DNA from: Thermodesulfobacteriota bacterium
GTDB taxonomy: Bacteria > Desulfobacterota_D > UBA1144 > Nemesobacterales > Nemesobacteraceae
Direction: 5' to 3'
DNA length: 64,000 bases
Assembly (NCBI GenBank): GCA_965221875.1
Contig: OZ244920.1
Span: 489,164 to 553,163 of the forward strand
Of the stretch, positions 27,339-63,989 are shown piece after piece. The translations under genes and the position numbers were made by a program. Each line of letters begins with the position of its first letter. Within the stretch, counting starts at the first letter, position 1. The notes under the pieces were generated by a model. It made no database searches, was not told the DNA's origin, and saw only the letters and a list, made by a program, of their open reading frames with translations.

Positions 27339-27640
27339 TTGACATTAATTCCGAGTGAGTATGTAAATCATACTATGATCGACTTCGCTCCTCATAGTAA
27401 GCAAGATAATGGCCAAGACAGGAAGCGAAATCTATCTGAAGCTGTGCCATCTGTAGAGGTGATAAACGAAGACGCAAAGGGCCTTCTTCTTCAGCGTCAT
27501 TATATCGAAACAATATTTCAAGGATTATCTTTTCTTCCCGACAGTGTACTTCAAACTTGGGGGTACAAGAGATTAACTTAGGCAAATGATTCATATTGGA
27601 TATAAATCCACCTGTTTCTCTACTTGCTGTTAAGGGATAA

Positions 27641-27934
27641 TTGCCCAAAAAAATTTCACTGTCTCGCAAGGACGATTTTCTTACTGTTGAGTTTCACCAC
27701 CTTGAGGCTCCTTTAAAAGAGGTTTATTCAGGACCGTATCAAGGAAAAACAACGCTAGACGGAGAAGACATAGAGGCCGTACTTGATAGAGAGGTAATGT
27801 CGATTTCTGATATAACAGACACTCTTCGGTCTCTTACTGCCACTGTATCAAATATGGAGAAGAGCATAAACAAGACTTTATGGATTGTTGGCCTTGGAGT
27901 GGCTGCTATAGCAATTTTGGTCGCTCTTAAGTAG
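27641..27934 (+). CDS. small hypothetical protein with C-terminal TM anchor (start uncertain)
   Basis: ORF ending ..NKTLWIVGLGVAAIAILVALK. Confidence 0.25.
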   Translation: MPKKISLSRKDDFLTVEFHHLEAPLKEVYSGPYQGKTTLDGEDIEAVLDREVMSISDITDTLRSLTATVSNMEKSINKTLWIVGLGVAAIAILVALK

Positions 27935-28002
27935 ACCTACCATCGAGAAAATCAATCAGTTAATCAATTTCTCGTAAGTAAGCCTTTTCCCCGCAAGTCC
28001 CG

Positions 28003-28240
28003 AGATGGTAAAGTTTATCTGGTCTATAGTGTGCATAGGACGGACATTTGTACGGTTGGCAAATTCGTTAATGTACTTCTTACCGACATACTGTGATAAA
28101 CGCCATAATAACCGCGCTTCAATAAAGCCCAGAGTGACTCAACGCCGTTGGTATGGGCTTCCCTTTAACGTACTCCCCGCTCTTATGATTAACCTTACAG
28201 TGTTCATATCCCAAGTGGGCGAGTATATGCAGTTTTGAAG
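28003..28240 (-). pseudogene. C-terminal remnant of a second IS1595-family transposase gene
   Basis: Minus-strand translation ..HTNGVESLWALLKRGYYGVYHSMSVRS.. matches the IS1595 transposase C-terminal motif. Confidence 0.5.
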
Positions 28241-28566
28241 GTTTGAAACCAAACACCGAATACGAGTTTAGAGATTCGATTCAAGAACGAGCACGGAAAG
28301 AGCGAACCAGTTTTAATCAAGTTTTGCACTGGAAGTCAAGGCACTGCGGGTATCTGACTTCCCGTTACACTTAATCTGAAAGAAACTACCATGTCAGAGA
28401 TTGCATATTACGATTTATTCGGACCATCTTTTCAGTTGAATTCGGACGGTCATTACGAACGAATTCGGACGGCTGAATCTCTTTTTTCTTTTCCCTCAAA
28501 ACAGACTCTAACACGTTCAGAATTTCTCTGTCAAACGACGATTAAAAAGTCTGTTTTTTTTCTCTC

Positions 28567-29355
28567 CTAACAATCACCTTTATTCTCTTCTTTTTCCTTT
28601 GCCGATGTCTGTTTTTCTTCCTTCTCCGCAACGATCTTTCTCATAGATTCCCCGCCGAGTTCAAGACGATGAGAGTTGTGAACGATTCTGTCAAGGATCG
28701 CGTCGGCAACCGTGTTGTCCCCTATCATTCCGTGCCACTCACTCACCGGAAGCTGACTTATCACCACAGTAGAACTCTCCCCGTAACGGTCATCCATTAT
28801 CTCCATCAGATCATATCTCTGGGCCGTGGTCACAGCCTCAAGACCCCAATCGTCTATGATAAAGAGCCCCACTCTGGCAAGCTTTGAGAGAAGCTTGTTG
28901 TAGCTTCCGTCCGCCTTTGCCTGAGAGAGAGCAAAAAACAGTCTTGAGATCCTGTAGTAACGAACCGATACCCCTCTGAGACACGCGTTATGACCCAGGG
29001 CGCACGCTATCCATGTCTTGCCGCTCCCGCAAGGACCCGTTATGAGAAGATTGCGGCCCCGCTCTATCCAGTCCCCCTGGGCAAGCCCTGCGATCTGAGC
29101 CTTTCTCAGGTTACGGGAATGGCCGTAGTCAATATCTGCCAGGTCGGCTTTTAACCTGAAGCGAGCGTTGCTTACGAGACGCTGCTGTTTTCTGCTCTCC
29201 CTCTCAACGCATTCTCTCTCCACAAGCAGTCCGACCCTCTCCGTAAAACCCAGTTCATCGTAAGTGCGGGACTGCTCGCACTGACGCTCAAGCGCCTCGG
29301 CCATGGCTCCAAGCCGAAGTCCCCGAAGACGTGACAATGTCTGTTGCAAACTCAT
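28567..29355 (-). CDS. istB: IS21-family helper ATPase IstB
   Basis: 262 aa; Walker A GPCGSGKT, Walker B LFIIDDWG, IstB family architecture. Confidence 0.85.
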   Translation of the reverse strand: MSLQQTLSRLRGLRLGAMAEALERQCEQSRTYDELGFTERVGLLVERECVERESRKQQRLVSNARFRLKADLADIDYGHSRNLRKAQIAGLAQGDWIERGRNLLITGPCGSGKTWIACALGHNACLRGVSVRYYRISRLFFALSQAKADGSYNKLLSKLARVGLFIIDDWGLEAVTTAQRYDLMEIMDDRYGESSTVVISQLPVSEWHGMIGDNTVADAILDRIVHNSHRLELGGESMRKIVAEKEEKQTSAKEKEENKGDC

Positions 29356-32697: not shown

Positions 32698-34302
32698 ATG
32701 ACCTTGGTAAATTCATTAGCTTTGCCCACCCCGGTTGAATCTCTTCTCCGGGGTCATTCCGTGGAATGGGAACGCCTTGAGTTCAAGGCTGGTTGGAATG
32801 CCGAAGCAGTTCTGCATACCATCTGCGCCTTTGCCAACGATTTTCACAATCTCGGTGGCGGGTATATCTTGATCGGCGTGGAAGAGGAGAACGGTCGTCC
32901 GAAACTCCCGCCGAAAGGTATCAGCGAAAACCGTATTGACTCCATACAGAAAGAAATACTCAAGATGGGGCATTCGGCCATCCGGCCCGCATACCATCCC
33001 ATCACCGCACCCCAGCGCGTGGGCGACAGGATGGTTCTCGTCATCTGGGTTCCGGGAGGAGAGACGAGACCTTACAAGGTCAGAACCGCTATTTCCGGCA
33101 AATCTTCCGAATGGGCGTGGTACATAAGGAAGCAGTCAAGCACCGTGCGTGCCGGGGCCGCCGACGAGCGGGAGCTTCTGAGCCTCGCCGCTACAGTGCC
33201 TTTCGATGACCGTTACAACCAGAGAGCCTCGATAGATGATTTGTCGCTGAAGCTGATTGAGGAATTTCTCGTGGAGGTTGGAAGCAGTCTCGGGGATCAG
33301 GCCGCCGGAGTTACCATGGAAAGCCTTGGGCGGCGGATGAATATTGTGGGCGGCCCGCCCGAATCCGTTTTCCCGAAGAATATAGGTTTGATGTTCTTCA
33401 ACGATCACCCCGGGTCTTTTTTCCCCGCGACACAGATTGACGTGGTCTGGTTTCCCGATGGACCCGGCGGCGACCGTTTTGAAGAGAAAGTCTTTGAAGG
33501 TCCCTTGTCGAAAGTGATCCGAAGTGCCTTGGAATACATACAGCGCGGCTACCTGAAGGAGATAGTGGTAAAGCACCCGCGGCGGGCCGAGGCCGACCGC
33601 TTCTGGAACTATCCGTACGCAGCTGTTGAGGAGGCGGTCGTAAACGCCGTTTATCACAGGTCCTACGAGATCAGGGAACCCGTGGAAGTGCGGATAACAC
33701 CTGAGGAACTGAGCGTGTTGAGTTACCCGGGTCCCGATGGGTCAGTTGTAATTGAGGACCTGAGAGTCGGCAGGGCGGTAAGCCGTCGCTACCGCAACCG
33801 CAGGATCGGAGAGTTTCTAAAAGAACTGAATCTTGCCGAAGGTCGCTCCACCGGCATCCCCAAGATTCTCAAGGCCATGAGCGAAAACGGGTCTCCCGCC
33901 CCTGTTTTCGAAATGGACGGGGAACGGAGCTACTTTTTAACCCGTCTTCCTTCGCATCCTCATGCTCCCGGGAGAACCGAGAAGACATCCGAGAAGCTTG
34001 GGGCCCATGACGAGGCCCATGACGAGGCCCATGATGCCTCAGCCGTGAACCTGAGCGGCACGGAACGCCGGATATTGATTGCCTGCGGGAGGGGCCCGCA
34101 GAAGGCATCCGAACTTCTCAGCACTCTCGGTTACGAATCCCGCACCGGTAATTTCAAAAGGTCCCTGAATCGTCTTATCGATTCGCGGATACTGGAGAGA
34201 ACTCTGGGAAGAGCGCCGAGGAGCAGGAATCAGAAATACAGGCTGACGGACAAGGGCCGGGCCATTGCGTCGTGCCTGGGTGAGGGGAATGTCGAGACAT
34301 AA
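32698..34302 (+). CDS. AlbA_2 (Schlafen-like) DNA-binding domain + HATPase_c_4 protein (often annotated RecG-like / transcriptional regulator)
   Basis: 534 aa; N-terminal E.-.LEFK.G ..AFAN..GGY.LIGV AlbA_2 signature; central ATPase-like region; C-terminal wHTH-like region. Confidence 0.6.
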   Translation: MTLVNSLALPTPVESLLRGHSVEWERLEFKAGWNAEAVLHTICAFANDFHNLGGGYILIGVEEENGRPKLPPKGISENRIDSIQKEILKMGHSAIRPAYHPITAPQRVGDRMVLVIWVPGGETRPYKVRTAISGKSSEWAWYIRKQSSTVRAGAADERELLSLAATVPFDDRYNQRASIDDLSLKLIEEFLVEVGSSLGDQAAGVTMESLGRRMNIVGGPPESVFPKNIGLMFFNDHPGSFFPATQIDVVWFPDGPGGDRFEEKVFEGPLSKVIRSALEYIQRGYLKEIVVKHPRRAEADRFWNYPYAAVEEAVVNAVYHRSYEIREPVEVRITPEELSVLSYPGPDGSVVIEDLRVGRAVSRRYRNRRIGEFLKELNLAEGRSTGIPKILKAMSENGSPAPVFEMDGERSYFLTRLPSHPHAPGRTEKTSEKLGAHDEAHDEAHDASAVNLSGTERRILIACGRGPQKASELLSTLGYESRTGNFKRSLNRLIDSRILERTLGRAPRSRNQKYRLTDKGRAIASCLGEGNVET

Positions 34303-50967: not shown

Positions 50968-52178
50968 GGGACTTATATACATAACTAGACGTATACTGTT
51001 CCTGGCCGAACGGGCCCTACTTCAGCCCGCTTCATCTCCATCCTTCCGGCCATGCGGGACTCTAAACCAAGCTTCCCACCCGCAATCGAGATGCCTCGAT
51101 GAAGGATATTTATTGCTGCGTTTACATCCCTGTCCATAACTACTCCACACTCACATCTGTGCGTCCTGACGGACAGAGACTTCTTTACCGTAGCTCCGCA
51201 ACCTGAACACTCCTGAGATGTCCCCCGGGGATCAACCTCCACCACCCTGACGCCAGCACTCTCAGCCTTCTCGTTAAGCAGTGTTATCAACTTACCCCAG
51301 TTCTGCTCATGTATGCTCCTCGCAAGTTTACTGTTGCGAACCATGTTCTTTGTCCTAAGCTTCTCCACCACAATGAAGTCGTACATCTTTACTATCTCCG
51401 CACTCAGGCGGTGAAGATAATCTCTTTCCTTGTCACTTATCCTCTGCCACTCCCTGGCAAGCAGTAAAACTGCTTTTTTCCAGTTGTTGCTTCCCTTCTT
51501 CTTGCGGGACACAGAACGCTGAAGCCGTATTATTTTACTCCTGTCTATCACTCTCTTCTCTACCGTCTCCCCGTCACTAAGCGTAAGACGCTTCGTTATC
51601 CCCATGTCTATGCCCACTGGATTGGTTATCTGTTCTGCGGCAGGAACATCATCTATTTCATACGACAGGGCCACTTCAGTGCGCAGTGCCTTCCTCGTAA
51701 TGCGTATAGCTCTCAGAAGTCCGTTCGGTGGAAGTTCACGGGATGTCTTTACTTCAATACGGGGAAGTCCCTTTATCCTGAGAACAGTCTTGTTCCCCTC
51801 TCTCTTTAACATGCTCCCGCACTGATCGTTTACCTCTATGCTTCTCCACCTGCGAGAGCTTTTAAAGCGGGGGAAGCCTCCATGGGTAAAAAACCTCTTG
51901 TACGCCTTGTCAAGCCTTGAGAGAACACCTCTAAACAGAATGGCGGATATATCTTTGAATTCCTGAATCTCAGCCCTGACCTCGGTTAGTTCCTTGCACT
52001 GATCAAAGTAGCTTCGGCTTTTGCCTGTTTTTTTGTAGCAGTCAATACGGGACTCAAGACCGGCGTTATAGAGTTCAGCGGACAGTCTCAGCACCTGATC
52101 AAGCCTGCTGTGCCCAGCTCTGGATATCTTGGTACGACACTTATAAGTCCTTATCATGGCTATGTCATTATACCCAGC
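50968..52178 (-). mobile_element. ~1.21-kb tnpB-carrying unit bounded by sequences related to the TIR-cassette family (boundaries tentative)
   Basis: GGGACTTATATACATAACTAG at 50968-50988 directly abuts the tnpB stop; degenerate related sequence TATGTCATTATACCC at 52161-52175 abuts the start. Confidence 0.4.
50985..52157 (-). CDS. tnpB: TnpB (OrfB_IS605 / IS1341-type RNA-guided nuclease-like transposon protein)
   Basis: 390 aa; RuvC-like motifs (GIDMGI, E, D) and C-terminal Zn-ribbon CSGCGATVKK..HRCECGVVMDRDVNAAINI. Confidence 0.85.
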   Translation of the reverse strand: MIRTYKCRTKISRAGHSRLDQVLRLSAELYNAGLESRIDCYKKTGKSRSYFDQCKELTEVRAEIQEFKDISAILFRGVLSRLDKAYKRFFTHGGFPRFKSSRRWRSIEVNDQCGSMLKREGNKTVLRIKGLPRIEVKTSRELPPNGLLRAIRITRKALRTEVALSYEIDDVPAAEQITNPVGIDMGITKRLTLSDGETVEKRVIDRSKIIRLQRSVSRKKKGSNNWKKAVLLLAREWQRISDKERDYLHRLSAEIVKMYDFIVVEKLRTKNMVRNSKLARSIHEQNWGKLITLLNEKAESAGVRVVEVDPRGTSQECSGCGATVKKSLSVRTHRCECGVVMDRDVNAAINILHRGISIAGGKLGLESRMAGRMEMKRAEVGPVRPGTVYV

Positions 52179-52339
52179 ACCCTTCTATATGACTACTCAA
52201 CCCTGGCACTGTCAACTTTCCTACATAGTTCCCATAATTTGCAAGGATAACGGAACTTCATATTTCTTATCAAGCGGCAAGAGAAGTTCTGTACGCCATG
52301 CCGCCATGCATTTTACTCTTTCAAGGTGAGCCAGCTGGC

Positions 52340-53578
52340 TTACGACCGGTTCCAGACCGTTCCGAAAGGAACGGCCCACAGCCCGTCACCCATGGAACCC
52401 GCGAGTTCTCCCGAATAGAGTACGATCCCGGTGAATTTTCTGTCGCGCGCGATGTTTTTCTTAAACCAGCTGAGGCTCCTGAAATCGCTCGTTCCGATGG
52501 CCGAGCCCGCCTTGATCTCAATCCCGAGTAGCGCCGAGTCCTCCCTTTCGATCAGGAAGTCAATCTCGCGCTTTTCGCGGTCACGGTAATGAAACAGGCT
52601 GTATTTTCCGGCATTGGCGTCCGCCTGGGCGGCTATTTCGTTGAACATGAAGGTTTCAATCAGTTTGCCCGAGCGGTCCGCGTCCATGCGAACCTGCTGC
52701 CTGTCCCAGTCGAGAATCGAAGACATAAGTCCCGAATCGGTCATAAACAGCTTGGGGCGGCTCCCCACCCGCGCGTAGTCCGTGCGTTTCCACGGCCTTA
52801 TGCGCTCGACCACATACAGGGTTTCCAAGGCGTTTATATATGTCTCGACCGTGGAGCGGACGATGGAAAGTCCGGCGGCTATGGATGAGATGTCCATGAA
52901 TTTGCCCGACCATGCTGCCAGGGCATATATCAGTTCGCTCATGGCATCGCGTCGCTGGATACGCCCGAGATCCCTCAGGTCGCGCTCAAGAATCGCGTCC
53001 ACATAGTCCCGATGCCATAGTCTTCGTTCTGCGTCTCCAAGCAGAATAGCTTCCGGGAAGCCGCCCCCAAAAGAGATGTTCAGCATGGCGTCACGACCGT
53101 AAGCGCGGTCGGGATGCCCGAAGTCCTGTCCGAAAGCCCGGTCAAGGAAATCTGGAACCACCCCCAAAATCTCTCCCTGCGTGAGCGGACGCAGCCGTAC
53201 CTTTCTTATACGTCCGGCGAGAGATTCCCGCACCCCTGGAGAAGACTGTATGTCGGCCGAACCTGTCAGCAGGTATTGTCCGGGCCTTGTATCTTCATCT
53301 ACATTTATCTTGATCGCGGAAAGCAGATCGGGGGCACGCTGGACTTCGTCGATGATGAGGGTTTTTCCCGAGTGCCTAACGAAACCTCGGGGGTCGGTTT
53401 CGGCAATCTGCCGTACGGCCGGATCATCTAAAGTGCGGTAGGCGACATCATGTGAAACCAGTTCCTTGGCAAGAGTAGTCTTGCCGCATTGCCGCGCTCC
53501 GCAGAGCAACAGCACGCGGCGCGCTTCGAGAGCTTTTTCCAAAGTGTTCCGCTGCCAGCGGACATAAGAACGTGACAT
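52340..53578 (-). CDS. AAA+ ATPase (AAA_14 + DUF4143), paralog of 34652-35884
   Basis: GARQCGKTTL Walker A; ~45% identity to the other copy. Confidence 0.75.
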   Translation of the reverse strand: MSRSYVRWQRNTLEKALEARRVLLLCGARQCGKTTLAKELVSHDVAYRTLDDPAVRQIAETDPRGFVRHSGKTLIIDEVQRAPDLLSAIKINVDEDTRPGQYLLTGSADIQSSPGVRESLAGRIRKVRLRPLTQGEILGVVPDFLDRAFGQDFGHPDRAYGRDAMLNISFGGGFPEAILLGDAERRLWHRDYVDAILERDLRDLGRIQRRDAMSELIYALAAWSGKFMDISSIAAGLSIVRSTVETYINALETLYVVERIRPWKRTDYARVGSRPKLFMTDSGLMSSILDWDRQQVRMDADRSGKLIETFMFNEIAAQADANAGKYSLFHYRDREKREIDFLIEREDSALLGIEIKAGSAIGTSDFRSLSWFKKNIARDRKFTGIVLYSGELAGSMGDGLWAVPFGTVWNRS

Positions 53579-53610
53579 GATCCTAAACTCGCTGTATTGT
53601 TATTTCCGTA

Positions 53611-53679
53611 TCCGCGTTTTTGCAAAAATCGCATCCGCGTTTTTATAGAAATTATACCCGCGTTTTTATAGAAAACAAT
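53611..53679. promoter_or_regulatory. three 23-bp direct repeats (iteron-like) upstream of the minus-strand DUF4143 ATPase gene
   Basis: atccgcgtttttgcaaaaatcgc / atccgcgtttttatagaaattat / acccgcgtttttatagaaaacaa. Confidence 0.4.
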
Positions 53680-53849
53680 GTTCCCAAGTCGTATTATCCG
53701 GATCCGTCGTCTTTTTCCTGCTGCGCCCTGCTGCTCTCGATAGACTTTCTGATTTCAGACATTCCCTGTTCCCGGTAGGCCTCGTCCGATTTAGCGTTTT
53801 CAAGGCGCTCCCGCACCCCTCTGGTCGAGCGCCGCAGATCTTCCCCGCC

Positions 53850-55560
53850 CTAGCGTATCTCGCCCCGTCCCGCCCCGAAGTCTTCCGCGGTCTTCGTCTC
53901 TTCGGTTCCGATTCTCTCCTGGGACCGCTCCCGCGCCTGGGCTACCCGTTCCCTGACCTCGGTGGAGCCCTCGTTTATCGAGCCCTGAGTTTGCTCGATT
54001 CCCGCCCCGCCCGCCCCCGCGGCGGACTTTCTGTATTCCCCGAAGGACTGTTCCGCGTCGACCTCGAATCTGCGGACGTTGCCGAGGCCGTAGCCGTCGG
54101 CGGGTATCGCGGCGACCGATTCTCTGGTTTTCCTTCCCCCGCCGACAAGTTCCGAGAGGCCCGTGACCCTGTGTATCGATCCGGAGACGGCTTCCGCTTC
54201 CTCGGTATCGTATCTTCCGTCGCGAAGGTCGGTAAGCCCCCTGGCCACGTAGCTGTCCGAATAGCCTTGCCCCCTCATGTCGGCAAACACCGTCTGGGTG
54301 TACTCCCTCTCAAGACCCGCGCCGAAGGAACTCTCCCCCGAGAGCACTTCTGAGTAGGCTTTTGCCCTCTCCCTCTGGGAGGAGTAGTCCCGCGGTCGCC
54401 CCCGTAGTCTTGTCCACCTCGATGGGCCCGTATCCCTCGGCGGAACTCTCGCCGTCCGCGGTCGTCGCAAGGCAGCGCTCCATGTCGGCGAGCATGGCCA
54501 TGCGCGAGGCCACTTCGAGAAAATCCGTGTTCTGCTCCGTCTGCGTATCGAAGCAGTCATCCCCCGAGGCGCAGCGGATTTCCCCGTCGCACTCATACGT
54601 GACGCTTTTTTCCCGGCAGAGGCTTACGCTTTTCTGGCAGTCGTAGGCGTTTTCCTGGATAAGGCATACCCCGAGGTTCCTCCCCGGCGGGTCAGGAAAC
54701 TCGGGATGCTCGCGGAACCGCATGACGCAGCGCGCCCCGGTCTGGTGGCAGCCATCGGCGCGCAGCTGAGGGCAGTCGGGGTCTTCCACCAGGGGGCTCG
54801 CGCAGAGGTAGGTGTATTCCCTGTCTGTGCAGACGGTTTCTCCATCCGGGGTCTCGGTGCTCTGAAGGCAGCGGTTGCTGAAGGTTTCGCAGTTTCCGGC
54901 CGCTTTGTAGCCCCCGCAGCCGTCTTCGGTTTCGATGTGGATTTCGTATGTGGTTTCGGTGTCCGTGGGCGAGGCTCTCCGCCGGGATTCGATACCAAGG
55001 GGGACCACGGTAACGGTAACGGTCTTTTTCACGTTGCAGTAATGTCTGCTGAGCGTCGCCTGTTCGTGGCACTTCTTTGGTTCGTTCCAGAAGTTCTCCG
55101 CGTACTCGGTGCACACCTCCTGTTTCTCGCATGAGGACAAGGGGGCCTCGATCGCATCCTTGGAGCTTGCGATCATGGGGTCCGTTTCAGGGTCTACGGT
55201 GAACGCGGGGCGCTGCGCGGAGCTTTGCCTGAGGAATCCGGGAGCATCCGAGGTGGCCGGGTTCCCGCCCTGTATGGCGCCCTCCGCCTCCGTTTTCATT
55301 CCCCCGGGATTCCCGGTCCACCGCGCCCCCTCGCTTCTGAGTTCCTCGAGGGTCTCTGTACCGTAGCCCGGAAGCGTTTCTGTTTCAACTGCTGACGGCA
55401 TCAGGGCTTGCGAGTGGCGAGACAGCATTTCAGTCCCGTGGAGATGTCCTTCCCGGAGGCCCGCCTCGAAATCCTCCCCGGCGCCGGGCGCCGGCACAAG
55501 CAGGAGACTAATTGTCACTAAAGCCGCTTTTTTCAAGGCGCCTTCTAAACACCCCGGCAT
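53850..55560 (-). pseudogene. traN: F-type T4SS mating-pair stabilisation protein TraN-like, Cys-rich, apparently frameshifted near 54310-54400
   Basis: 416-aa ORF with signal peptide and >20 Cys in C-x-C-rich arrangement, positioned after trbC as in the F tra operon; continues in another frame (53850-54596). Confidence 0.55.
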
Positions 55561-56214
55561 TTGCGTCCTCCTTTTCCATGAGCCCGAGAGCGTAGGGAAG
55601 CGATACGTCCCCGGAAACCTTTACGTGGGTAAGCCCCTCGCAGTCTGTGCCCGGCAGGTAGCCGTAGGTAAGCACAAGCTGCGGCACCGCCCCGACCGAA
55701 AAGCATTCGAAAAGAACGGGGTCTATCCAGACCTCCGCCCCGGTCTTCCCGATCAAGCCTGATATCCGCGAGGCGGTTTCCCCGATATCTTCTCCCGAAA
55801 GTCCCCGAAGAACCATCACCGCGCCCCCGGCCGCGCTCTCCCGCGCCGCCTCCCTGAGAGAGGAACGCGGCATCGAGAATGAGAAAAAGTAAAAGAGCTC
55901 GGGTGTCCCGTCCTCTGTGCTTGCGTTTTTTTCGGGGAAAGCCCGAGAGGGCGACGGTTTTACCGAAAGCAGTTCCATTACTTCTTCGGTTTCCTTCGCT
56001 CTGGGGGAGTTTGTTTCAGAAAGTGTCTTCTCCGCTCCCGCAATGTCGGGCGAGAGCAGTTCTCCGAGCAGTTCCCTCGCGCGGGAGATATCCGCTTCGC
56101 CGGGTTCGATCCTTATTTCCCCGAGCGAAACGGGATTCTCTTCGGGTGAAGCGGCAACTCCCGAGGCAACGAGCACAGCCGCGATCAGAGCAGGCAGCAG
56201 TCTTTTTTTCTCCA
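55508..56214 (-). CDS. trbC: F-type conjugative pilus assembly protein TrbC
   Basis: LFYFFSFSMP, VMVLRGL, VWIDPVLF..AVPQLVL, GDVSLPYALGLM closely parallel F-plasmid TrbC; signal peptide; probable start MEKKRLL. Confidence 0.8.
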
Positions 56215-57174
56215 TAGCACCCATACCCAGTCCTCTCCCTGCGTGGGATACCACTTGCCGGGGGCCCAGCGCGCAGTAGTCCTTCCTATCGGGAACGCTT
56301 GCGTGTTCTTCGGAAAGGCGAGCTGAAGCTTGTACTGGTCTTTCACTATGACCCTGTGGGGCCGGGGCGCGCACAGGGAACCCTCTCCCGTGGTCTTAAA
56401 AGCCAGAAGTTCGTTATGCAGCTTCGCGAGCAGCTTCACGGCCGAAAGCGCGTAGACGGCCGGGAGGTCTCCCGTCGCCCCGTTGTTTCCCGTGTGGGGG
56501 TAGACGCTCCCCCACGACCCGGCGCACCAGAAAAGCTCGTTAAGCGCAAAGCCCCCCGCGGCGGCCACGGCGTCCGCGGCGCACGAGGCCTGCGCCACGG
56601 GGTTTGCCACGAGCGCTATTTCGGGGTGGAGCAGAAAAGAGAGTTCGTCGTTGCTCCAGAGGGGATCAAACGCCGTCATGTATGCGAGGTCGAATCCTCC
56701 CCGGGTCATGCACCCGAAACTTGAAAAAAGGCTCAGCACGGAGAACACAGGGTAAATAAAGTGGTGGACGTGAAGAAATGAGGTCCTGTCCCCACGCTGT
56801 CCGCCTCCCTCTCCGTATGCCCCAGTCATGGCGAAGGATGGAAGGGGAAGCTTACTGCCCCCGAACGAAGGGAAACACCCTGGGTGCCTTACGACCTCGA
56901 TCAGCTTAACCGGCTCCCAGAAGGAAACCTTTATGCCGACCCTGGGGACCGGCGACCCGCAGAAACAGAGCGGGAAATGGCTTACGGTTTGGGTTCCCTT
57001 TCCGGGCGTTACCGCCACTCCCCCTATCTTTATCGGGAACATCGCCCTCCAGTCAACGTCCGTGAGCGGGTTAAAAAACCTGCCGCCGCACTTGGGCGAC
57101 GCCACGGCCTCCCTTGCGGGACCGGTGAACAGGGCGGCGAGCAGAAATGCGAAGAGTATCCTTTTTCCGTGCAT
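56185..57174 (-). CDS. traU: F-type conjugative pilus assembly protein TraU
   Basis: CGGRFFNPLTDVDW, NPVAQASCAADAVAAA, LFWCAGSWGSVYP, WRKKDCC align with F TraU motifs (CEGRFVNPITD.., NPIAQGACAADAIA, LFWCAGSQGSMYP, WRKRNC). Confidence 0.9.
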   Translation of the reverse strand: MHGKRILFAFLLAALFTGPAREAVASPKCGGRFFNPLTDVDWRAMFPIKIGGVAVTPGKGTQTVSHFPLCFCGSPVPRVGIKVSFWEPVKLIEVVRHPGCFPSFGGSKLPLPSFAMTGAYGEGGGQRGDRTSFLHVHHFIYPVFSVLSLFSSFGCMTRGGFDLAYMTAFDPLWSNDELSFLLHPEIALVANPVAQASCAADAVAAAGGFALNELFWCAGSWGSVYPHTGNNGATGDLPAVYALSAVKLLAKLHNELLAFKTTGEGSLCAPRPHRVIVKDQYKLQLAFPKNTQAFPIGRTTARWAPGKWYPTQGEDWVWVLWRKKDCCLL

Positions 57175-57277: not shown

Positions 57278-59404
57278 TTATTTGCCGTCGCTGCGATACT
57301 TGCGGGAGAGGAGGGGCAGCAGGGCGGCTGTGCCCAGAAGCAGGCGCGCAAGCTCAGTCTTCGCGTGACCCGCTCTTTTGCCCGCGGCGATTGAGCACCC
57401 TCCTCCACCAGAGGAGTCCCCGCTTCCCGGCGACGGGCGTTTTTCTTCCGGAGGCTCCACCGAGGGCGGTTTTTCCTCTTCCGGAGGCTCCTCCACGGGC
57501 GGTGACGACGGCTCGGGGTCTGGTGTCGGTGTCGGATTCGGGGTGGGTGTTGGTGTCGGATTCGGGGCAGGTGCCGGAGGTCTTGTCGGCGGCGGCTGTT
57601 CATCATCCCTTATGGTTCCAGTTGCACGACTTCGCCTGATCTGAGCGTTTTGCGGATTCAGAAGCTCAACGATGAATGTTTCAGTTCCTTCCCGGGTTGA
57701 ATCATCCGTCAGGGACACACTGACAGTCTTCTGCGTTTCGCATGGGGCAAAGGTGATCGGCGAAGGCCGCCCGCCTGTGTAATCGGAACCTTCTTCTGCC
57801 GTTCTGTCCGTTATTGAGTATTCAACGGTTACTGACTGATCATCCCGGGGAGAGGCAAGGTTTACGGTGAATTCAATACTGCCGTCTCCTTCTCCGGCGA
57901 CTGAGTCTTCAATTGAAAGCCTCGGGGCAGGATGGTTCTCAAGGGAGAGCGTTTTGGGAACGGGTTCAAATCCGCTGTAGAACCTGTCGTTGCTCTGCGC
58001 CGGGCCTATACGTATTTCGTAGTTTCCTACCCCGTCGCAGCTTCCGTCATCAACTCCCCTCACCGTCACTTCCCGCGGAGTGCTCCAGCTCGAAGGGGTG
58101 AATGTAACTACGCTCGAGACCTCACCCTCCGAAGGGGTATCGCTTGTCAGGGGTATTGTGATGTTTCCAGAGGGTTTTGACTCAAGTTTTATCTCGAATT
58201 TCGCAGTCCCGCCGCTCTCGGTCGTCACAAGCTGCTGTGACAATGGTCTTACTGAGATACCCGTTGGCATGCAGTCCGGGGCAAGTCCGCTTACGCTCCA
58301 GCCTATATCGCTCAGGATGCCGAGCGAGAGATCCATGTTTCTCGGGGACGGGGCGAAGGCTTCCATGGTATCTCCGGCGGAAGAAAAGACGTGGGAGACG
58401 GATGAGGTGCTGTCAAAAGACGAGGGAGCGTGGAGAAGCGGTTTTCCGTCATCTGATTTTGCGGAAGGGTGCGTAAGCTCCGCCATCTTCACCCCGTAGC
58501 TGCAGTTCCCGCTACGCCCGTATGTGCCCTCCCAGAGAAGTCCTGTTTCAGATGTCATCGCCGCCTCCCGTTGCGCCCGGGTGATGTCCGGAAAAGATGC
58601 GTCTTCTGCCTCCGAGTAAAGCTGCTCGTCGTAAACTGACCGCGAAACTATATTGACATCGCCTGAGAAAGGTATGCCGCCACACACCGTTCCGCTTACC
58701 ATCAGAGTTCTTGGAGGAAATGCGCCGTCACCTTCTATTGTAGAGAGGAACCCGATCCCGTGCATGATCTCATGGATTACGAGCTGGATGAAGTCAACTC
58801 TGTTTGAGGGATCAGTTCCGGTGATCCCGTAGTAATAGGGAACGCATTTGCTGAGCCGAATACGTATGTCGTCATTCTGTCCGTTAATATCCGTGTTCCC
58901 TGGTATAGCTTCGAAAAGGGCGTAAGGGTAAGCCGTTTGAAGCGACGGGTCGCCTGTCTGCATCGGTGTGAGCAAAGAGCAGTCAAACTGTATCCTAAGA
59001 TTATAGGCGTAACCGGTAGGCCCGGCGAAACCGACAGTGGTGAGTGACGGAAGCGGATTGTTGCAGTGACCCGGCATAAGTAGATCCTCCTGACCGTCAA
59101 AAAACACGAATTCGGCTCTTATCCTTATGGTGCTTTGATTGCCGAGCCTTCCCTCAAGGATGGAAATCGCGTGTCGAAAGGCGTTTTTCCTGGCCTCTCC
59201 CAGAGTCTGGGCGTTATTTCCACGTGAGGAAAGAAGATTTCTTTGTTCCTGCGAAAGAGGGGTCGGATCGTTAAACCCTTCGTTTAAGGCGTCTGTGTAC
59301 GTTACATCAATCGTTACCGAAGCGCCCGGGGGCGTCGCCGCAAACAGCGCGGTGAGCATAAGGAGAATTATGAGGGGGGGGGCCATCGGGCCTAGTGATC
59401 GCAT
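57278..59404 (-). CDS. secreted zinc metalloprotease (HExxH metzincin-like) with Calx-beta domains, Pro/Thr linker and C-terminal GGGGCS-TM-basic sorting signal
   Basis: 708 aa; signal peptide; HEIMHGIGF; Calx-beta-like segments (..TVEYSITDRTAEEGSDYTGG..ETFIVELLNP); PTPTPTPNPTPTP linker; C-terminus GGGGCSIAAG..LLLGTAALLPLLSRKYR. Confidence 0.65.
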   Translation of the reverse strand: MRSLGPMAPPLIILLMLTALFAATPPGASVTIDVTYTDALNEGFNDPTPLSQEQRNLLSSRGNNAQTLGEARKNAFRHAISILEGRLGNQSTIRIRAEFVFFDGQEDLLMPGHCNNPLPSLTTVGFAGPTGYAYNLRIQFDCSLLTPMQTGDPSLQTAYPYALFEAIPGNTDINGQNDDIRIRLSKCVPYYYGITGTDPSNRVDFIQLVIHEIMHGIGFLSTIEGDGAFPPRTLMVSGTVCGGIPFSGDVNIVSRSVYDEQLYSEAEDASFPDITRAQREAAMTSETGLLWEGTYGRSGNCSYGVKMAELTHPSAKSDDGKPLLHAPSSFDSTSSVSHVFSSAGDTMEAFAPSPRNMDLSLGILSDIGWSVSGLAPDCMPTGISVRPLSQQLVTTESGGTAKFEIKLESKPSGNITIPLTSDTPSEGEVSSVVTFTPSSWSTPREVTVRGVDDGSCDGVGNYEIRIGPAQSNDRFYSGFEPVPKTLSLENHPAPRLSIEDSVAGEGDGSIEFTVNLASPRDDQSVTVEYSITDRTAEEGSDYTGGRPSPITFAPCETQKTVSVSLTDDSTREGTETFIVELLNPQNAQIRRSRATGTIRDDEQPPPTRPPAPAPNPTPTPTPNPTPTPDPEPSSPPVEEPPEEEKPPSVEPPEEKRPSPGSGDSSGGGGCSIAAGKRAGHAKTELARLLLGTAALLPLLSRKYRSDGK

Positions 59405-59769
59405 TCTAAATGGGGCTTGCCGTCCTCATCGAACCGCACTTGCGTGTGGACTCCGTGAGACTCGGGCATGTCGACAACTATCACGTAATCTCCGTTTCCA
59501 AGCTCCACCAGCCTGCCCTCAAGCGGGGCTTGGGAGCTCTGTTTTTCCGGGGCGCGGCCTTGCGGTAGGGATCGCTCCCCGGGCCTCTCATCCTCAATGC
59601 CGAGGTCAAGCCACTGCTCGCGGGTAAGTATCTCTCCGGTGTCCGGATGTATGAAGATTTTAACTCCCGCGCCTTCGGGGGAGTCGGCGCGCGTGTCGGC
59701 GGCGAGGGCTCCCGCTGGGCAGAGAAAGAAAAAAAGCGCAACAGCCATAAAAAGCATCTTCATCTTCAT
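59392..59769 (-). CDS. small secreted hypothetical protein
   Basis: MKMKMLFMAVALFFFLCPAGALA signal peptide; overlaps the metalloprotease start. Confidence 0.35.
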   Translation of the reverse strand: MKMKMLFMAVALFFFLCPAGALAADTRADSPEGAGVKIFIHPDTGEILTREQWLDLGIEDERPGERSLPQGRAPEKQSSQAPLEGRLVELGNGDYVIVVDMPESHGVHTQVRFDEDGKPHLECDH

Positions 59770-59888
59770 CTTAATTATAAACCAATCCGGACCCGAAAGA
59801 AATCCTGCTGCCCGCTTGGCGGGAGAAAAGTATGCTGAGTATACAATATGGTGGCTGAAAAAAGGTGATAGTGCGGAACAAAAAAAGA

Positions 59889-60512
59889 TCATTTTAGAAC
59901 CATTTCCCGCACTTTGAGTTTCCTGCCCTCCTGCTCTACAAGCGACGGCACCCTCTCGACCCCGAGCCGCCTGAGCATAAAAGGAGTTGCCTTGCACACT
60001 GCCTGGTTCGCACGCAGCGAAGCTTCCCGGACATCGCCATCCGTAAGCAGCAGAATCAGTTTTCCCGCCGCACCGCCCGTTTTCTCAAGTGCTTTTTCTA
60101 CCTGGTACTCTCTCAGCACCAGGATGTTTTTTGAAAGCGATACGTGATCAAGCGGATTTACTGCGCCCGCGGGGAAGATCATTTTCCCCGTGTGGTCGTA
60201 GAGCGGATTTTGTACGTTCACCGAAGGGTCTACATAACGCACCCGCTCTTTCGCAGCTGAAGGGACGTCGAGGGAAACAAGAGAGTGCCGCGCGTAGGAT
60301 TCCTTAAGTTTTCTCTCCATGCTTTCCCGAAACGCCTGCAAGTCAATTTCCCCGGTCTTTCTCCGGACATAGGAAAGCATGTCCTCTTCCCTTATTTCGT
60401 AGAGGCGCCCGTGAACTCCGAGATCCTTACCCGAAGCCCGGGCCGGCGCCGGGGAGAACTGGATAAAAAATACCGAGGCTAGAACAAGGGAAACCCACGC
60501 CCGACTATCCAT
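59889..60512 (-). CDS. traW: F-type conjugative pilus assembly protein TraW (copy 1)
   Basis: GKDLGVHGRLYEIREEDML.., RVRYVDPSVNV, ATPFMLRRLGVERVPSLV parallel F TraW (AADLGTWGDLWPVKEPDML, SRLFDPSVRL, LCQRLGIDQVPARV). Confidence 0.8.
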   Translation of the reverse strand: MDSRAWVSLVLASVFFIQFSPAPARASGKDLGVHGRLYEIREEDMLSYVRRKTGEIDLQAFRESMERKLKESYARHSLVSLDVPSAAKERVRYVDPSVNVQNPLYDHTGKMIFPAGAVNPLDHVSLSKNILVLREYQVEKALEKTGGAAGKLILLLTDGDVREASLRANQAVCKATPFMLRRLGVERVPSLVEQEGRKLKVREMVLK

Positions 60513-60752
60513 GATTTTCTTACAAACCGTTACGCCTCTGCAGTTTTATGCAACAGCCTTTCCAGTGGTTAATTCAGCCGAATAAAATAAATAACCGGTT
60601 TGCTAGGCATGAAGTCTCCCTAAGTGTGTTTGTGGGGATTATGCCCAGCCAAGAAAAGAATTCCCGGTCGGAAGTATTAACTCTTACAGGCTAAAGGTCA
60701 GGCGTGTTTTCTGTAGCTTTGAGACACGAGTATGGTATTCAAAATATCACGG

Positions 60753-61271
60753 TTATAAAGTTTCTTTATCAAGCAATTTCTGTACTTCTACTTTGACTTT
60801 TTCTTCGAGCTTGTCCAGATCAATGCGTTCTTGTTTAACAGCTGTTGCCAAGAGTTTAGCTAGAGCTTTTTTTGTTAAATAAGTGTAACCATCCGCCTTA
60901 ATTTCGGTAGAGATGCGGGAGGCGATTTTCCCGAGGCGTACATAATCAAGCCGGTACACATCAACATGTTGCTTGACGAGATCCTCAACAGGTGTTCGCC
61001 CGTCAGTATCTTTCCATGTTTGACCGTCTTCCTGCAATTTATCATTGGCAATACAAATAAGATCGAGTCTTTCAATGGAGTTACCTGCCGCTACTATAGC
61101 CAAGGCCACCTCTTCAATGTTTTCTCTGGAATCCGATTTACATTTCCAAAAGGATAAAGAATTTCCTTTCGTGCGAAGATCCACAGTTACAGCATCGGCT
61201 GGTATCTCCTCACTAGATAATCCTTGCTTGAGTCCCCACTTTGCGCGTGTAATCTTGCGGATCAGAAACAT
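60753..61271 (-). CDS. hypothetical protein (cassette gene C), lower GC
   Basis: 172-aa ORF in tight operon spacing with the two upstream genes; no recognised domain. Confidence 0.45.
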   Translation of the reverse strand: MFLIRKITRAKWGLKQGLSSEEIPADAVTVDLRTKGNSLSFWKCKSDSRENIEEVALAIVAAGNSIERLDLICIANDKLQEDGQTWKDTDGRTPVEDLVKQHVDVYRLDYVRLGKIASRISTEIKADGYTYLTKKALAKLLATAVKQERIDLDKLEEKVKVEVQKLLDKETL

Positions 61272-61274
61272 GGG

Positions 61275-62057
61275 TTATTCTCCCAAGTCGTTGATTACGT
61301 CCAAGATGTACTCACGAAGCCACGATTCACTCTCGTGATGCGATTTGAGAATGCTTACTAGACCTTGATCACCCCACGATTCTGCTGCCTGCACAGCGGC
61401 GTCCCTAATTTCCACATTGTCAACAGTCAGGCCTCGGCGAACGAGTTCAGCACGCCATGAGTATGTTCCCAGATTCGTCTGACGTCCAAGGCAGCGCAGT
61501 ACTGATGCAGCGAAACTCGGACGCTCTATGTTTAGAGAAAAATCCTTAAACCAGTCAAAAATTGGCTGATTTTCCGAGAACTGCAGAGCTTTTTTAATGA
61601 TTTGTTCCGCTGGATGGTCCATTCCGTTTTCAAAAGGGTCAGCTTCAAAGGCTGCATGTAAGTTGTACAAAAGTTGCGCTTGCCCCGATTCCACAAAAGA
61701 AGACTTCTTTACAGTTGTTTGCCGAAAGTATTTTACATCGCCAAGTGCGGAGAAAAGCTCCTGGCCGAGCCACGCACTCCGCCATACACTGGTTTTATAT
61801 TCTGTTAAGTATAGATCATAGTTAAGTCCCTCAACCGCCTCTCGCAACCGCACGGCATCAGAAGAGGCTGCGAGCGAGTTTTTTCCGAAGACGACCCAGT
61901 TGATGATATTTGAAAAAGTCATAAGTGAATCTTTCACTATGACGAACTGAGTTGGTACATCAACATGTGGTGCTATTGATTGGTCCACCCAGTTTGGGGC
62001 ATACGCGACTAGGCCCGAAGCTGTGGAGGGCATGGGTAAGTGGCCTTTAATTTGCAT
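61275..62057 (-). CDS. hypothetical protein (cassette gene B), lower GC
   Basis: 260-aa ORF overlapping gene A stop by 11 nt; no recognised domain. Confidence 0.45.
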   Translation of the reverse strand: MQIKGHLPMPSTASGLVAYAPNWVDQSIAPHVDVPTQFVIVKDSLMTFSNIINWVVFGKNSLAASSDAVRLREAVEGLNYDLYLTEYKTSVWRSAWLGQELFSALGDVKYFRQTTVKKSSFVESGQAQLLYNLHAAFEADPFENGMDHPAEQIIKKALQFSENQPIFDWFKDFSLNIERPSFAASVLRCLGRQTNLGTYSWRAELVRRGLTVDNVEIRDAAVQAAESWGDQGLVSILKSHHESESWLREYILDVINDLGE

Positions 62058-62817
62058 TAAAGAGCTCCCTTGCTTTATCTGTTATTACACTTTCAAATGC
62101 ATCTCTTTCGCGAATACGCAAATCCTGGGTTTTTTTCAGTGCTTCGTCCAGAGCGACCGGCTCAGCGGTTTCCCATATTACATCCAGGTCTAGAAGAAAA
62201 CCTATATGGTCTGTTTGTGCACCGGCCAAGCCTTGGGATAAAACAAGATGAACGCCGTCTTCGTAAGCATAATCAACGCGGCTCATGAAGTTGCTCAAAC
62301 GGTCTGGTAATCCGTTAACGACTGGCAAGGCACACTTTAGATATTCTTCTACTTTCACGTTTTTTTCAGGGACAACAATTTTGTTTATGTACCGAATGCC
62401 GATTCGGCGCACGCCAACCGGTTTCGATACACTCTCGTATGCTTTAAGTGCGGTTGCAATTCTCGGTTTGAATTCGTCCCATCCACTAGCTTCGGGATTA
62501 GATGGATCTTGATAAGGGCGTAGCATGTGGATACTGAGTACATCCTGTCCAACTCCAACCATCCTTTTGCCATCCTTGGTGACAAGCTGGACTTTTGCAA
62601 AGCCTTCACGGTAACGAAGGTTGGGAGAACCACCTTTTTGCGTATCTAGTTCTACCTCGACGACTTTTCCCTGTTGAGGTTTACCTGTATATTTGTTGCC
62701 CAATTTAGCTTGGAGTTTGCCGGGAACGGTGAGATCCCAGTCTCGTCCCGGTTCGAAGCGAAATTCACATAGTGCTTCTTCTATAGGTGGGTTTTTATAA
62801 CGCCGTCGCTTGCTCAT
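62047..62817 (-). CDS. hypothetical protein (cassette gene A); possibly TIGR04255-like family
   Basis: 256 aa; N-terminus KNPPIEEALCEFRF resembles my recollection of TIGR04255-family N-termini; AT-rich promoter region upstream. Confidence 0.45.
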   Translation of the reverse strand: MSKRRRYKNPPIEEALCEFRFEPGRDWDLTVPGKLQAKLGNKYTGKPQQGKVVEVELDTQKGGSPNLRYREGFAKVQLVTKDGKRMVGVGQDVLSIHMLRPYQDPSNPEASGWDEFKPRIATALKAYESVSKPVGVRRIGIRYINKIVVPEKNVKVEEYLKCALPVVNGLPDRLSNFMSRVDYAYEDGVHLVLSQGLAGAQTDHIGFLLDLDVIWETAEPVALDEALKKTQDLRIRERDAFESVITDKARELFNAN

Positions 62818-63365
62818 AAATGTCTTCCTTCAAAAGTTTTGTGTAGAAATTTACCACATCCACTAGTCTGCACTACTCCAAGGCAGTTTCTGGATTCGTG
62901 TTGGCCACGTAATTAAGTTTTTGCACTCAGAAGCACGAAGGAACATTTCCTTTATTTAGAGGTGCGCGCATGTTTAGCCGGGTTTCCGGCGAAAATGTCT
63001 CTTTTTGCTAAAAACTCAAAAAAGAAAAAGATTGTCGACACCTTTTTTTTGCTGATGGCAAGAAGTTTTTTCTGTGGAAAGAGGAGAGGTGCCTGCTTGT
63101 CGTTCCTGCGTCTTGAATTCTCATTTTTTCTTTTTGAAAAGATCACGAAAATTTTCAAGATTCTCTGTACGAACCCTCACAATATCGGGCGAGCAACTTT
63201 TTTTCGCTAGGGATTATCAAGCAATCTATATGCTTAAATATATACATTGATTTTTTTTAGACAAGTGCAAGGAGTACTTGAAGATCTAAGCGACCTTAAG
63301 AGGTTGTTAGGGAAATTCTATGATTAAGCTTGTTTTATCGCTAACACATAAACAAAGTCACAGCA

Positions 63366-63989
63366 TTATTCTAAAAATATTTCTTTTATCATGAGTTTCT
63401 TGCCCTCCTGCGTTACAAGCGACGGCACTTTTTCAACTTGAAGCCTCTTGAGCATGAAAGGACTTGCCTTGTATACGATCCGACCCGCAAGCGAGGAAAC
63501 TCTTCGGATATTACCGTCGGTGAGCAGCAGAATCGGTTTTTCACCTCTTTTGTTCGTTTCATCAAGCGCTCTTTTCACCTGGTCCTCTCTCAGTATCAGG
63601 ATGCTTTTTGAAAGCGGCACGTGATCAAGCGGATTTACTGTGCCCGCGGGGAAAATCATTTTCCCCGTGTGGTCGTAGAGCGGATTCCGCACATTCACCG
63701 AAGGGTCGACGTAACGCACCCGCTCTTCCGTGGCCGAGGGTACGTCGAGGGAAACCAAAGAGTGCTTCGAGTAGGATTCCTCGAGTTTTCTCTCCATGCT
63801 TTCCCGAAGCGCCGCCATTGAGATTTCTCCTGCCTCTCTCCTGACATAGGAAAGCATGTCCTCTTCCTTTATCTCGTAGAGTCGCCCGTGAACCCCGAGG
63901 TCTTTCCCCGAAGCCTGGGCCGCCGCCGGGGAGAACTGGATAAAAAAGACCGAGGCTAGAACAAGGGAAACCCACGCCCGACTATCCAT
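63366..63989 (-). CDS. traW: F-type conjugative pilus assembly protein TraW (copy 2, diverged paralog)
   Basis: 207 aa, ~80% identical to copy 1 (MDSRAWVSLVLASVFFIQFSPA..); gene continues to the window edge context. Confidence 0.8.
   Translation of the reverse strand: MDSRAWVSLVLASVFFIQFSPAAAQASGKDLGVHGRLYEIKEEDMLSYVRREAGEISMAALRESMERKLEESYSKHSLVSLDVPSATEERVRYVDPSVNVRNPLYDHTGKMIFPAGTVNPLDHVPLSKSILILREDQVKRALDETNKRGEKPILLLTDGNIRRVSSLAGRIVYKASPFMLKRLQVEKVPSLVTQEGKKLMIKEIFLE

Follow-up and report, generated by a model that had tools for sequence, protein, structure and literature searches.

A mobile three-gene cassette in the traW-traU interval of a decaying F-type element is a candidate toxin-antitoxin or abortive-infection module

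A gene cassette in the traW-traU interval

In a 64,000-nucleotide stretch of the genome of a Thermodesulfobacteriota bacterium (contig OZ244920.1, positions 489,164 to 553,163 of the forward strand; here called the window), three minus-strand genes, A, B and C, together referred to as the cassette, are encoded between two copies of traW within an F-type conjugation (tra) locus, behind a long intergenic spacer (Table 1). As proposed by a first-pass annotation of the window, the three open reading frames (ORFs) overlap or abut: the stop of A and the start of B overlap by 11 nt, only 3 nt separate the stop of B from the start of C, and a purine-rich ribosome-binding site precedes each start. The same annotation had described the cassette as lower in GC than its surroundings. 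This dip was genuine (45.5%, compared to 52.3% in the window, 51 to 55% in the two traW genes and 61% in traU), and the GC content at third codon positions (GC3) was likewise reduced (0.38 to 0.46 versus 0.60 to 0.73 in comparison genes); however, it was modest, since 7.9% of equal-sized windows within the 64 kb had a GC content as low or lower. The regions at 17000-19000 and 26000-29000, with 42 to 46% GC, equal or undercut the cassette. All three cassette genes are intact and exhibited dN/dS ratios of 0.09, 0.25 (B) and 0.29, indicating that they are under purifying selection.

The spacer upstream of A, predicted earlier as an AT-rich region of about 550 bp, was found at nearly this length, with 37.8% GC, and is 90 to 91% identical to its relatives. 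Small ORFs within it were ruled out as coding because single-nucleotide indels disrupt them in the relatives, and we thus regard the spacer as noncoding. Nevertheless, its Jukes-Cantor (JC) distance was only 0.10, compared to a synonymous divergence (dS) of 0.24 to 0.27 for the cassette, i.e., it evolves at ∼40% of the cassette's synonymous rate, and it is also slower-evolving than the neighboring traW coding sequence. A promoter-like element (TTGTCT-16-TATATT, 63264-63237), located ∼420 nt upstream of A, is fully conserved in the relatives; sites of this kind are not more frequent in the region than expected by chance. The spacer probably comprises a promoter and a long leader for the cassette. 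It had no Rfam match, and the fold of the single RNA sequence was not significant (z = -1.2); hence, no Rfam family, significant fold or conserved ORF accounts for its slow evolution. An 11-nt unit that includes the ribosome-binding site of A (GAAGACACCTA; alignment columns 579 to 600, window ∼62818-62835) is present as a tandem duplicate in the related loci L084, L085 and L088, and as a single copy in the window and in L001.

To either side of the cassette and its spacer, the two traW copies are both intact with 207 codons and share 81% identity at the DNA level (75% at the protein level), close to the ∼80% estimated in the first-pass annotation. Both matched the TIGR02743 model over its full length, with scores of 94 to 102 bits that fall below the cut-off of 174.75, and their assignment as TraW is backed by the gene order TraC-TrbI-PeptS26-TraW...TraU in relatives. 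Copy 2 occupies the traW position of all related elements and shows 78 to 81% DNA identity to traW of L083 to L088 and L001, while copy 1 is more distant from the relatives (73 to 76%; dS of 0.86 versus L085). The first 150 nt of the two copies are 92.6% identical, compared to 71% at their 3′ ends, where copy 2 shares 79 to 80% and copy 1 only 66 to 69% identity with the relatives. The last 16 to 34 nt ahead of the copy 1 start codon match the sequence that precedes traW in the relatives, and the duplicated unit starts no more than 34 nt upstream of the ATG.

The cassette directly follows traW in eight related F-type elements, each of which has a single traW gene. In L083 to L088 the order is TraL-E-K-B-V-C-TrbI-PeptS26-TraW-spacer-A-B-C-p129-(HipBA)-p138-Calx-beta-TraU-TrbC-TraN, and L001 is shorter. 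Within the same interval, a HipA/HipB (helix-turn-helix) pair lies on the opposite strand right after the cassette in L083 to L087 (∼12596-14123), and HipA is present in the traW-traU interval of L108 as well. In contrast, the closest tra locus identified in a TraU-based search (L089; 92% TraU identity) has no cassette, but TraW followed by an oppositely oriented RTX-repeat gene (484 aa), p144 and TraU. L108 resembles L089 in its layout, including an RTX gene, and has no intact cassette. However, its first 440 bp (L108:1-440; JGI Ga0209543_1006303), when compared to window positions 60513-60802, still contain the 3′ end of gene C (∼17 codons; KKVKVEVQKLLEKEPS, then stop). Between this stub and traW lie 240 bp with 89% identity to the corresponding window segment (Table 1). 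Sequence upstream of the stub is unrelated, which marks the stub as a deletion scar left when the cassette was lost from this position. It follows that the junction of C, intervening stretch and traW seen in the window also exists elsewhere. Distant F-type loci have traW and traU as immediate neighbors. The content of the interval therefore ranges from A-B-C alone (L001) through A-B-C with p129, HipBA and Calx-beta (L083 to L087) or with traW copy 1 and Calx-beta (window) to an RTX gene in place of the cassette (L089 and L108). Since the closest tra locus lacks the cassette and a relative carries a deletion scar, we conclude that the traW-traU junction is a cargo hotspot in this family of F-type elements.

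Divergence within and around the cassette differed markedly. Between the window and L085, the spacer and A-B-C share 90 to 93% DNA identity (dS of 0.24 to 0.27), whereas identity was ∼81% for traW copy 2 (dS of 0.56), 85% for traU (dS of 0.62) and 74% for genes beyond traU; thus, dS of the cassette is less than half that of its flanks in the same relatives. Similarly, L085 and L084 are 99 to 100% identical in the cassette, but only 89 to 92% in traW and traU. Together with the cassette-free L089 and L108, these values bear out the earlier suggestion of a horizontally acquired accessory module. Among the relatives, the conserved block reaches into the 3′ end of traW (98 to 100% identity). The simplest reading is that recombination may carry the cassette from one element to another, with traW serving as the upstream homology arm. 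Recombination of two diverged elements may have left one traW on each side in the window, with their 5′ ends converted later. Import of traW copy 2 together with the cassette was considered as well, but is weakly supported, as the gene is only 78 to 81% identical to its relatives, compared to 90 to 93% for the cassette, and resembles them only at its 3′ end.

Table 1. Features of the cassette and the surrounding traW-traU interval (window coordinates)
Feature	Position	Strand	Description
traW copy 2	63366-63989	minus	207 aa, signal peptide; TIGR02743 3.6e-29, full length, below cut-off
Spacer upstream of A	62818-63365	minus	548 bp, AT-rich, noncoding
Gene A	62047-62817	minus	TIGR04255-family protein, 256 aa; variable "first gene" of the module
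Gene B	61275-62057	minus	260 aa; variable N-terminal half and strongly conserved helical-repeat (HEAT-like) C-terminal domain (∼residues 110-260)
Gene C	60753-61271	minus	172 aa; candidate effector, tentative ADP-ribosyltransferase-like fold
Junction cassette/traW copy 1	60513-60752	minus	89% identical to the L108 stretch between gene C stub and traW
traW copy 1	59889-60512	minus	207 aa, more divergent allele; TIGR02743 1.1e-26
p138-like gene	59392-59853	minus	small secreted protein; tblastn match to 172-aa gene of L001; likely start ATG ∼59769
Calx-beta protein	57278-59404	minus	708 aa; Pfam Calx-beta 2.8e-17; NF038122 metalloprotease 8.5e-07
traU	56185-57174	minus	Pfam TraU 1.4e-96; conserved right-hand boundary of cargo interval

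Between traW copy 1 and traU, the p138-like gene is homologous to genes of 138, 144 or 160 codons located before traU in L083 to L089 and L108; it had no Pfam match and is a backbone gene of the element family. The Calx-beta gene, with its metalloprotease-like N terminus, represents further traW-traU cargo; at the same site, relatives have a single Calx-beta gene, two of them, or an RTX-repeat gene. Beyond the interval, the tra locus of the window is truncated and degenerate. TraN was matched only over residues 1 to 211 and 341 to 537 of 724, so that an internal segment and ∼190 residues at the C terminus are missing. traF, traH and traG are missing (50985-55560) and have been replaced by an AAA_14/DUF4143 ATPase (52340-53578) and an IS605-family TnpB (50985-52157), beyond which chromosomal genes, e.g., for GroEL and MutS, are encoded. 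A GC-rich 248-aa ORF is also located in this region (53850-54596).

A constant B-C core with interchangeable first genes

A word-indexed search retrieved 495 homologues of B and at least 138 of C, and a full hidden Markov model (HMM) scan with a C profile yielded 2,449 representative clusters (50% identity; E ≤ 1e-3), almost all of them stand-alone proteins of ∼170 aa. We compared 82 loci, of which 80 derived from one-genome-per-species reference genomes and 2 from metagenome contigs. The C-terminal half of B (∼residues 110 to 260) is encoded directly upstream of C in 82 of the 82 loci, whereas A is found directly upstream of B in only ∼47 to 49. Throughout the phyla the stop of A overlaps the start of B, and C starts ∼4 nt past the stop of B. 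Where A is absent, B consists of the bare ∼145-aa domain or of this domain with another N-terminal extension, or an unrelated 231-aa protein is encoded ahead of the domain. Fusion of an HTH_17 DNA-binding domain to the C-terminal domain of B was found only in three loci from Spirochaetia (L040, L044 and L049; ∼9370-10017), all without A; in the same three loci, a gene for a TPP/POR-type enzyme lies 12 to 14 nt past C. Because adjacency to C was invariant while A and the N terminus of B vary, the C-terminal domain of B together with C constitutes the constant core, and the first gene and the B N terminus are interchangeable. Apart from A, B and C, no neighbor family occurred in more than 14 of the 82 loci.

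The hosts were all metagenome-assembled genomes and represent at least 13 phylum-level lineages: Chloroflexota (22), Latescibacterota (12), Gammaproteobacteria (10), Spirochaetota (8), Rhodothermales (7), Binatia (5), Thermodesulfobacteriota (4) and Alphaproteobacteria (3), with single hosts in Dadabacteria, Verrucomicrobiota, Nitrospirales, Cyanobacteria and Myxococcota. Homologues of A are additionally named from Candidatus Poribacteria. Sequence identities to the window vary between the genes of one locus: 88% for C, 60% for B and 70% for A in the Dadabacteria locus L003; 78% for A and 62% for C in L004, in which a 3.6-kb insert with a methylase gene splits A and the N-terminal part of B from the C-terminal part and C; and 94% for C and 88% for B (DNA) in L001. 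This pattern is best described as mosaicism inside the module.

In the first-pass annotation, no recognizable domains had been seen in the three proteins, although A was noted as possibly TIGR04255-like. The absence of domains held for B and C, neither of which matched Pfam, NCBIfam or PADLOC models, but not for A, which by profile comparison is a bona fide member of the TIGR04255 family (NCBIfam; E = 5.7e-39; 134.4 bits, cut-off 30), with residues 6 to 254 aligned to model positions 1 to 252; its homologues are named "TIGR04255 family protein" in the source records. A exhibits a duplicated beta-alpha-beta fold with guanidino-kinase/GS-type domains as nearest relatives. None of the three proteins matched PADLOC-DB v2.0 (including DarTG) at E ≤ 1, sequence and profile searches of PDB chains returned nothing useful, and neither a signal peptide nor a membrane segment was evident in the models. 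The conserved domain of B is helical-repeat-like, showing weak similarity to alphaRep and HEAT_2, and no DNA-binding domain was detected in the window copy by Pfam or NCBIfam.

For C, conservation among homologues highlighted a small set of residues: R5 (97%) on predicted strand 1, S40 (100%) within the motif NxLSFW on strand 2, and H102 (100%) with D104 (95%, E in 4) on strand 5, all of which are retained in remote homologues. ADP-ribosyltransferases (ARTs) carry their catalytic triad (R-S-E or H-Y-E) on strands 1, 2 and 5. We tentatively assign an ART-like fold to C. Pfam and NCBIfam searches with C and 114 homologues gave no ART match, scattered weak Pfam matches among the 114 homologues being to small helical domains (SAMD1_SHD, SHOCT-like) at the C-terminal helices, and C profiles reached no ART among PDB sequences. 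The sole PDB match of a broad C profile, the all-helical Smac/DIABLO, was judged to be due to chance.

Remote relatives were found on plasmids and prophages. tblastn detected C-like genes (24 to 31% identity) in the Acinetobacter prophages Ab105-1phi and AbTJ, in Acinetobacter plasmids and in 5-kb ColE1-type Enterobacter plasmids. The 7.5-kb Acinetobacter MOBQ plasmid pYWS30-1-6 carries three overlapping genes (231, 189 and 182 aa) as its sole cargo; prophage Ab105-1phi has a trio of 226, 215 and 197 aa after its tail and lysis genes, and the Enterobacter plasmid a gene pair of 213 and 183 aa. Using hhalign, the 182-aa protein of pYWS30-1-6 was recognized as a full-length C homologue (probability of 98.6%, E = 8.6e-16) that keeps R5, K11-W12, N37, S40, W42, T93-P94, H102, D104 and Y110, and the 189-aa middle gene product has the C-terminal motif of B (probability of 83%, E = 9e-6). 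In the plasmid and Dehalococcoidia cassettes, the first gene showed no detectable likeness to A and was dropped as a candidate A homologue. Plasmid and prophage cassette proteins had no PADLOC match at E ≤ 0.01, scanning IMG/VR with the C profile found nothing, and the Enterobacter cassette DNA was absent from complete Escherichia coli genomes. In the window and across phyla, the gap between B stop and C start is 3 to 4 nt, and the pair was found on plasmids, in a prophage and in an integrative and conjugative element (ICE). B and C thus form two small, adjacent, codirectional and coupled genes on mobile DNA, the arrangement by which type II toxin-antitoxin (TA) systems are recognized.

This distribution also bears on the position of the cassette between the traW copies, which could be explained by a role in conjugation, i.e., entry exclusion, anti-conjugation (as suggested in the first-pass annotation) or help in pilus assembly. 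Its fixed position right after traW in the eight related elements and the conserved upstream spacer would be consistent with such a role. However, these eight sampled tra contexts compare with 81 of the 82 reference loci, small nonconjugative plasmids and prophages, all without a type IV secretion system (T4SS) context; the closest tra loci have no cassette; A, B and C lack an evident signal peptide or membrane segment; and the cassette persists in a locus devoid of traF, traH, traG and part of traN. We therefore consider a conjugation role very unlikely, and the anti-conjugation proposal is not supported.

Genomic neighborhood and candidate function

In at least 11 of the 82 loci, the module is embedded in type III-like restriction-modification (R-M) operons. 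Seven loci have the single-strand order Mod-[A]-B-C-Res, and in four of these C stops 0 to 18 nt from the start of the ResIII and RE_endonuc gene. Approximately four others show the order ResIII-NYN-Mod-(A or the 231-aa protein)-B-C, with a 690-aa UvrD-type helicase gene that matches the defense models NERD+UvrD and GajB located 31 nt downstream. An R-M-type gene is present within 10 kb in 21 of the 82 loci. To place these numbers in context, the two nearest ORFs on each side were compared to ORFs of the same loci at distances above 6 kb. Among the near set (237 proteins from 62 loci) we counted 13 N6_N4 methylases, 5 RE_endonuc and at least 3 ResIII proteins, compared to at most one of each in the far control (150 proteins from 45 loci), the methylase difference being significant (Fisher's exact test, P = 0.0015 to 0.009, given crude ORF calling and several interrelated loci). 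The near set also included Eco57I-type methylases, AAA_15 and AAA_21 (AbiEii-like) proteins, PemK toxins, GreAB-C/PIN conflict-system domains, DUF4143/AAA_14 proteins and IS21/DDE transposases, whereas the far set consisted mostly of housekeeping families. The neighborhood check proposed at the outset thus returned an enrichment of R-M methylases close to the module. The window copy is flanked by tra genes on both sides, with no R-M gene in view.

One interpretation of this association is that the module is an accessory of type III R-M systems, either guarding the enzyme in a PrrC-like manner or regulating or extending restriction, and that the ICE copy is a detached version. The two R-M operon types, the confinement of methylase enrichment to the close vicinity of the module and the precedent of PrrC-EcoprrI (PMC1484252) point in this direction. 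Yet no R-M partner is located near ∼61 of the 82 copies, near the versions on plasmids and in prophages or near the copy in the window, which requires that the module functions alone, and no homology to PrrC was found. As a general explanation, an R-M accessory role is accordingly rather improbable.

A second alternative is a pure addiction module, i.e., a TA system that stabilizes the ICE or plasmid by postsegregational killing and has no anti-phage role. The coupled order of B before C, B variants fused to a helix-turn-helix domain, the occurrence as sole cargo on small mobilizable plasmids, the ICE interval shared with HipBA and the persistence of an intact cassette in a decaying element would all be expected for such a module. 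Embedding in R-M operons, where translation is coupled to that of Res, and coupling to a defense-type UvrD helicase, in contrast, indicate an infection-related role, and the variable first gene and B N terminus look like sensor diversification rather than a minimal TA pair. Although we hold pure addiction to be a minority possibility, addiction and infection-related roles are not mutually exclusive.

The window also encodes a set of eukaryote-like or adhesion-type proteins: an animal heme peroxidase (354-2117), a 1439-aa Spondin_N/Ig/CBM protein (2050-6369), an RTX-repeat protein (9546-11639) and the Calx-beta protein of the cargo interval. Such a repertoire is typical of animal-associated (sponge) symbionts. 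The mix of host taxa together with these proteins suggests an origin in sponge microbiomes. Sponge metagenomes have been reported to be enriched in defense-related features (PMC5099237). The cassette might alternatively encode a host-directed symbiosis factor, with an ART-type effector and a eukaryote-like repeat protein acting on the sponge: its closest relatives seem to come from taxa typical of sponge microbiomes, eukaryote-like proteins are encoded nearby, and many ART toxins act on eukaryotes. Since there is neither a secretion signal nor a linked secretion system, and the family also occurs on Acinetobacter and Enterobacter plasmids, in prophages and inside R-M operons, we regard this as very unlikely. 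Elsewhere in the window, a 534-aa protein unrelated to the cassette (32698-34302) combines Schlafen AlbA_2, HATPase_c_4 and Fic-like C-terminal domains, an architecture frequent in defense or regulatory contexts.

Gene structure, conservation, purifying selection, patchy mobile distribution and genomic context of the cassette are established by the data above. From these we infer the ART fold and active site, the toxin and antitoxin roles, a trigger and an outcome in defense or addiction. In our favored interpretation, with a probability of roughly one half, the cassette is an autonomous mobile TA or abortive-infection (Abi) conflict module with an ART-like effector, carried as traW-traU cargo of a decaying F-type ICE. 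This fits best because it accounts for the translational coupling, mobility, patchy distribution, purifying selection and R-M embedding, as well as for the occurrence as plasmid, prophage and HipBA-hotspot cargo, the antitoxin-like partner and the ART-like candidate effector. Defense or addiction would thus be the best-supported function and a credible candidate. The defense option raised in the first-pass annotation accordingly appears plausible, judging from R-M embedding, R-M, TA and Abi neighbors, plasmid and prophage cargo and the ART-like fold of C; it stands as an option rather than as an assignment.

As a working model, the effector role would fall to C, which probably uses NAD+ and belongs to the ADP-ribosyltransferase superfamily, with R5, S40 and H102-x-D104 as conserved active-site residues. 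B, as suggested by antitoxin-like gene order and translational coupling, would bind C and restrain or position it, whereas the N-terminal half of B and the interchangeable first gene, here A, might provide a variable input or specificity part. Possible triggers include phage infection, loss of the element or, in the R-M-embedded versions, inhibition of the linked restriction enzyme. C, once freed, would ADP-ribosylate a macromolecule or consume NAD+, resulting in growth arrest.

A more far-reaching and improbable scenario, which we put forward as speculation, would unite all versions. B and C would then represent a previously unrecognized, widespread clade (∼2,400 clusters) of R/S/H-x-D effectors of the ART superfamily, held by a helical-repeat protein, armed by interchangeable sensors including TIGR04255 proteins, and spread across phyla in sponge microbiomes by ICEs, plasmids and prophages. 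R-M-embedded copies would guard type III restriction and kill upon its inhibition by phage, as a type III, NAD+-based counterpart of PrrC-EcoprrI.

If the favored interpretation is true, bacterial immunity or addiction based on NAD+/ADP-ribosylation would gain a new family with many members, and neither Pfam-based annotation nor PADLOC covers A, B or C. This large, uncatalogued family is tied to type III restriction. The fixed partnership with B and C would provide the first functional context for the orphan TIGR04255 family, and stand-alone, R-M-embedded, helicase-coupled and HTH-fused versions would form a natural series for studying how effectors are wired to restriction enzymes. Moreover, gain, exchange and loss (the scar) of cargo are directly visible at the traW-traU hotspot of F-type elements, and the small plasmid versions from Acinetobacter and Enterobacter make the idea cheap to test.

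Comparison with known systems

The cassette is a member of none of its closest analogues, as all homology-based tests against these failed. TIGR04255, of which A is a full-length member, is listed in NCBIfam as a "sporadically distributed" hypothetical protein with no assigned function. The literature searched did not mention TIGR04255 or a matching system, although sources outside this search may describe one.

The ART-fold TA and defense pairs DarTG, ParST and RES-Xre/MbcTA are among the closest analogues. However, sequence profiles linked C neither to DarT or RES nor to any ART family, and PADLOC gave no DarTG match. The partner is a helical-repeat protein instead of a macrodomain or an Xre/COG5642 antitoxin, the cassette usually has a third, variable gene, and the putative acidic residue of C is the Asp of H-x-D rather than Glu.

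With regard to its genomic setting, the traW-traU interval resembles hotspot 5 of SXT ICEs, which carries BREX or Abi systems (PMC11580459), in that a fixed interval between transfer genes holds differing cargo, here A-B-C, HipBA, Calx-beta and RTX genes. It differs in ICE family and interval and in the duplicated traW that flanks the cargo, and the defense role of the cargo is putative.

A tripartite organization is known from CmdTAC, a toxin-antitoxin-chaperone defense system with an mRNA ADP-ribosyltransferase (PMC11618068), which served as a working model: three genes, an ART or ART-like effector held by its partner, and a third protein that could sense infection. Unlike the SecB-like chaperone of CmdTAC, A belongs to TIGR04255, the gene order differs, and no homology was detected.

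The linked type Ic R-M system EcoprrI keeps PrrC latent, and activation is brought about by an anti-restriction peptide of the phage (PMC1484252). Here, the R-M systems are of type III instead of Ic, the effector is ART-like in place of an ABC-ATPase plus RNase, and linkage to an R-M system is absent in the majority of the family, the window copy among them. The effector genes of the Mod-[A]-B-C-Res loci, however, are similarly placed between R-M genes and cotranscribed with them, and an analogous guard logic is plausible there.

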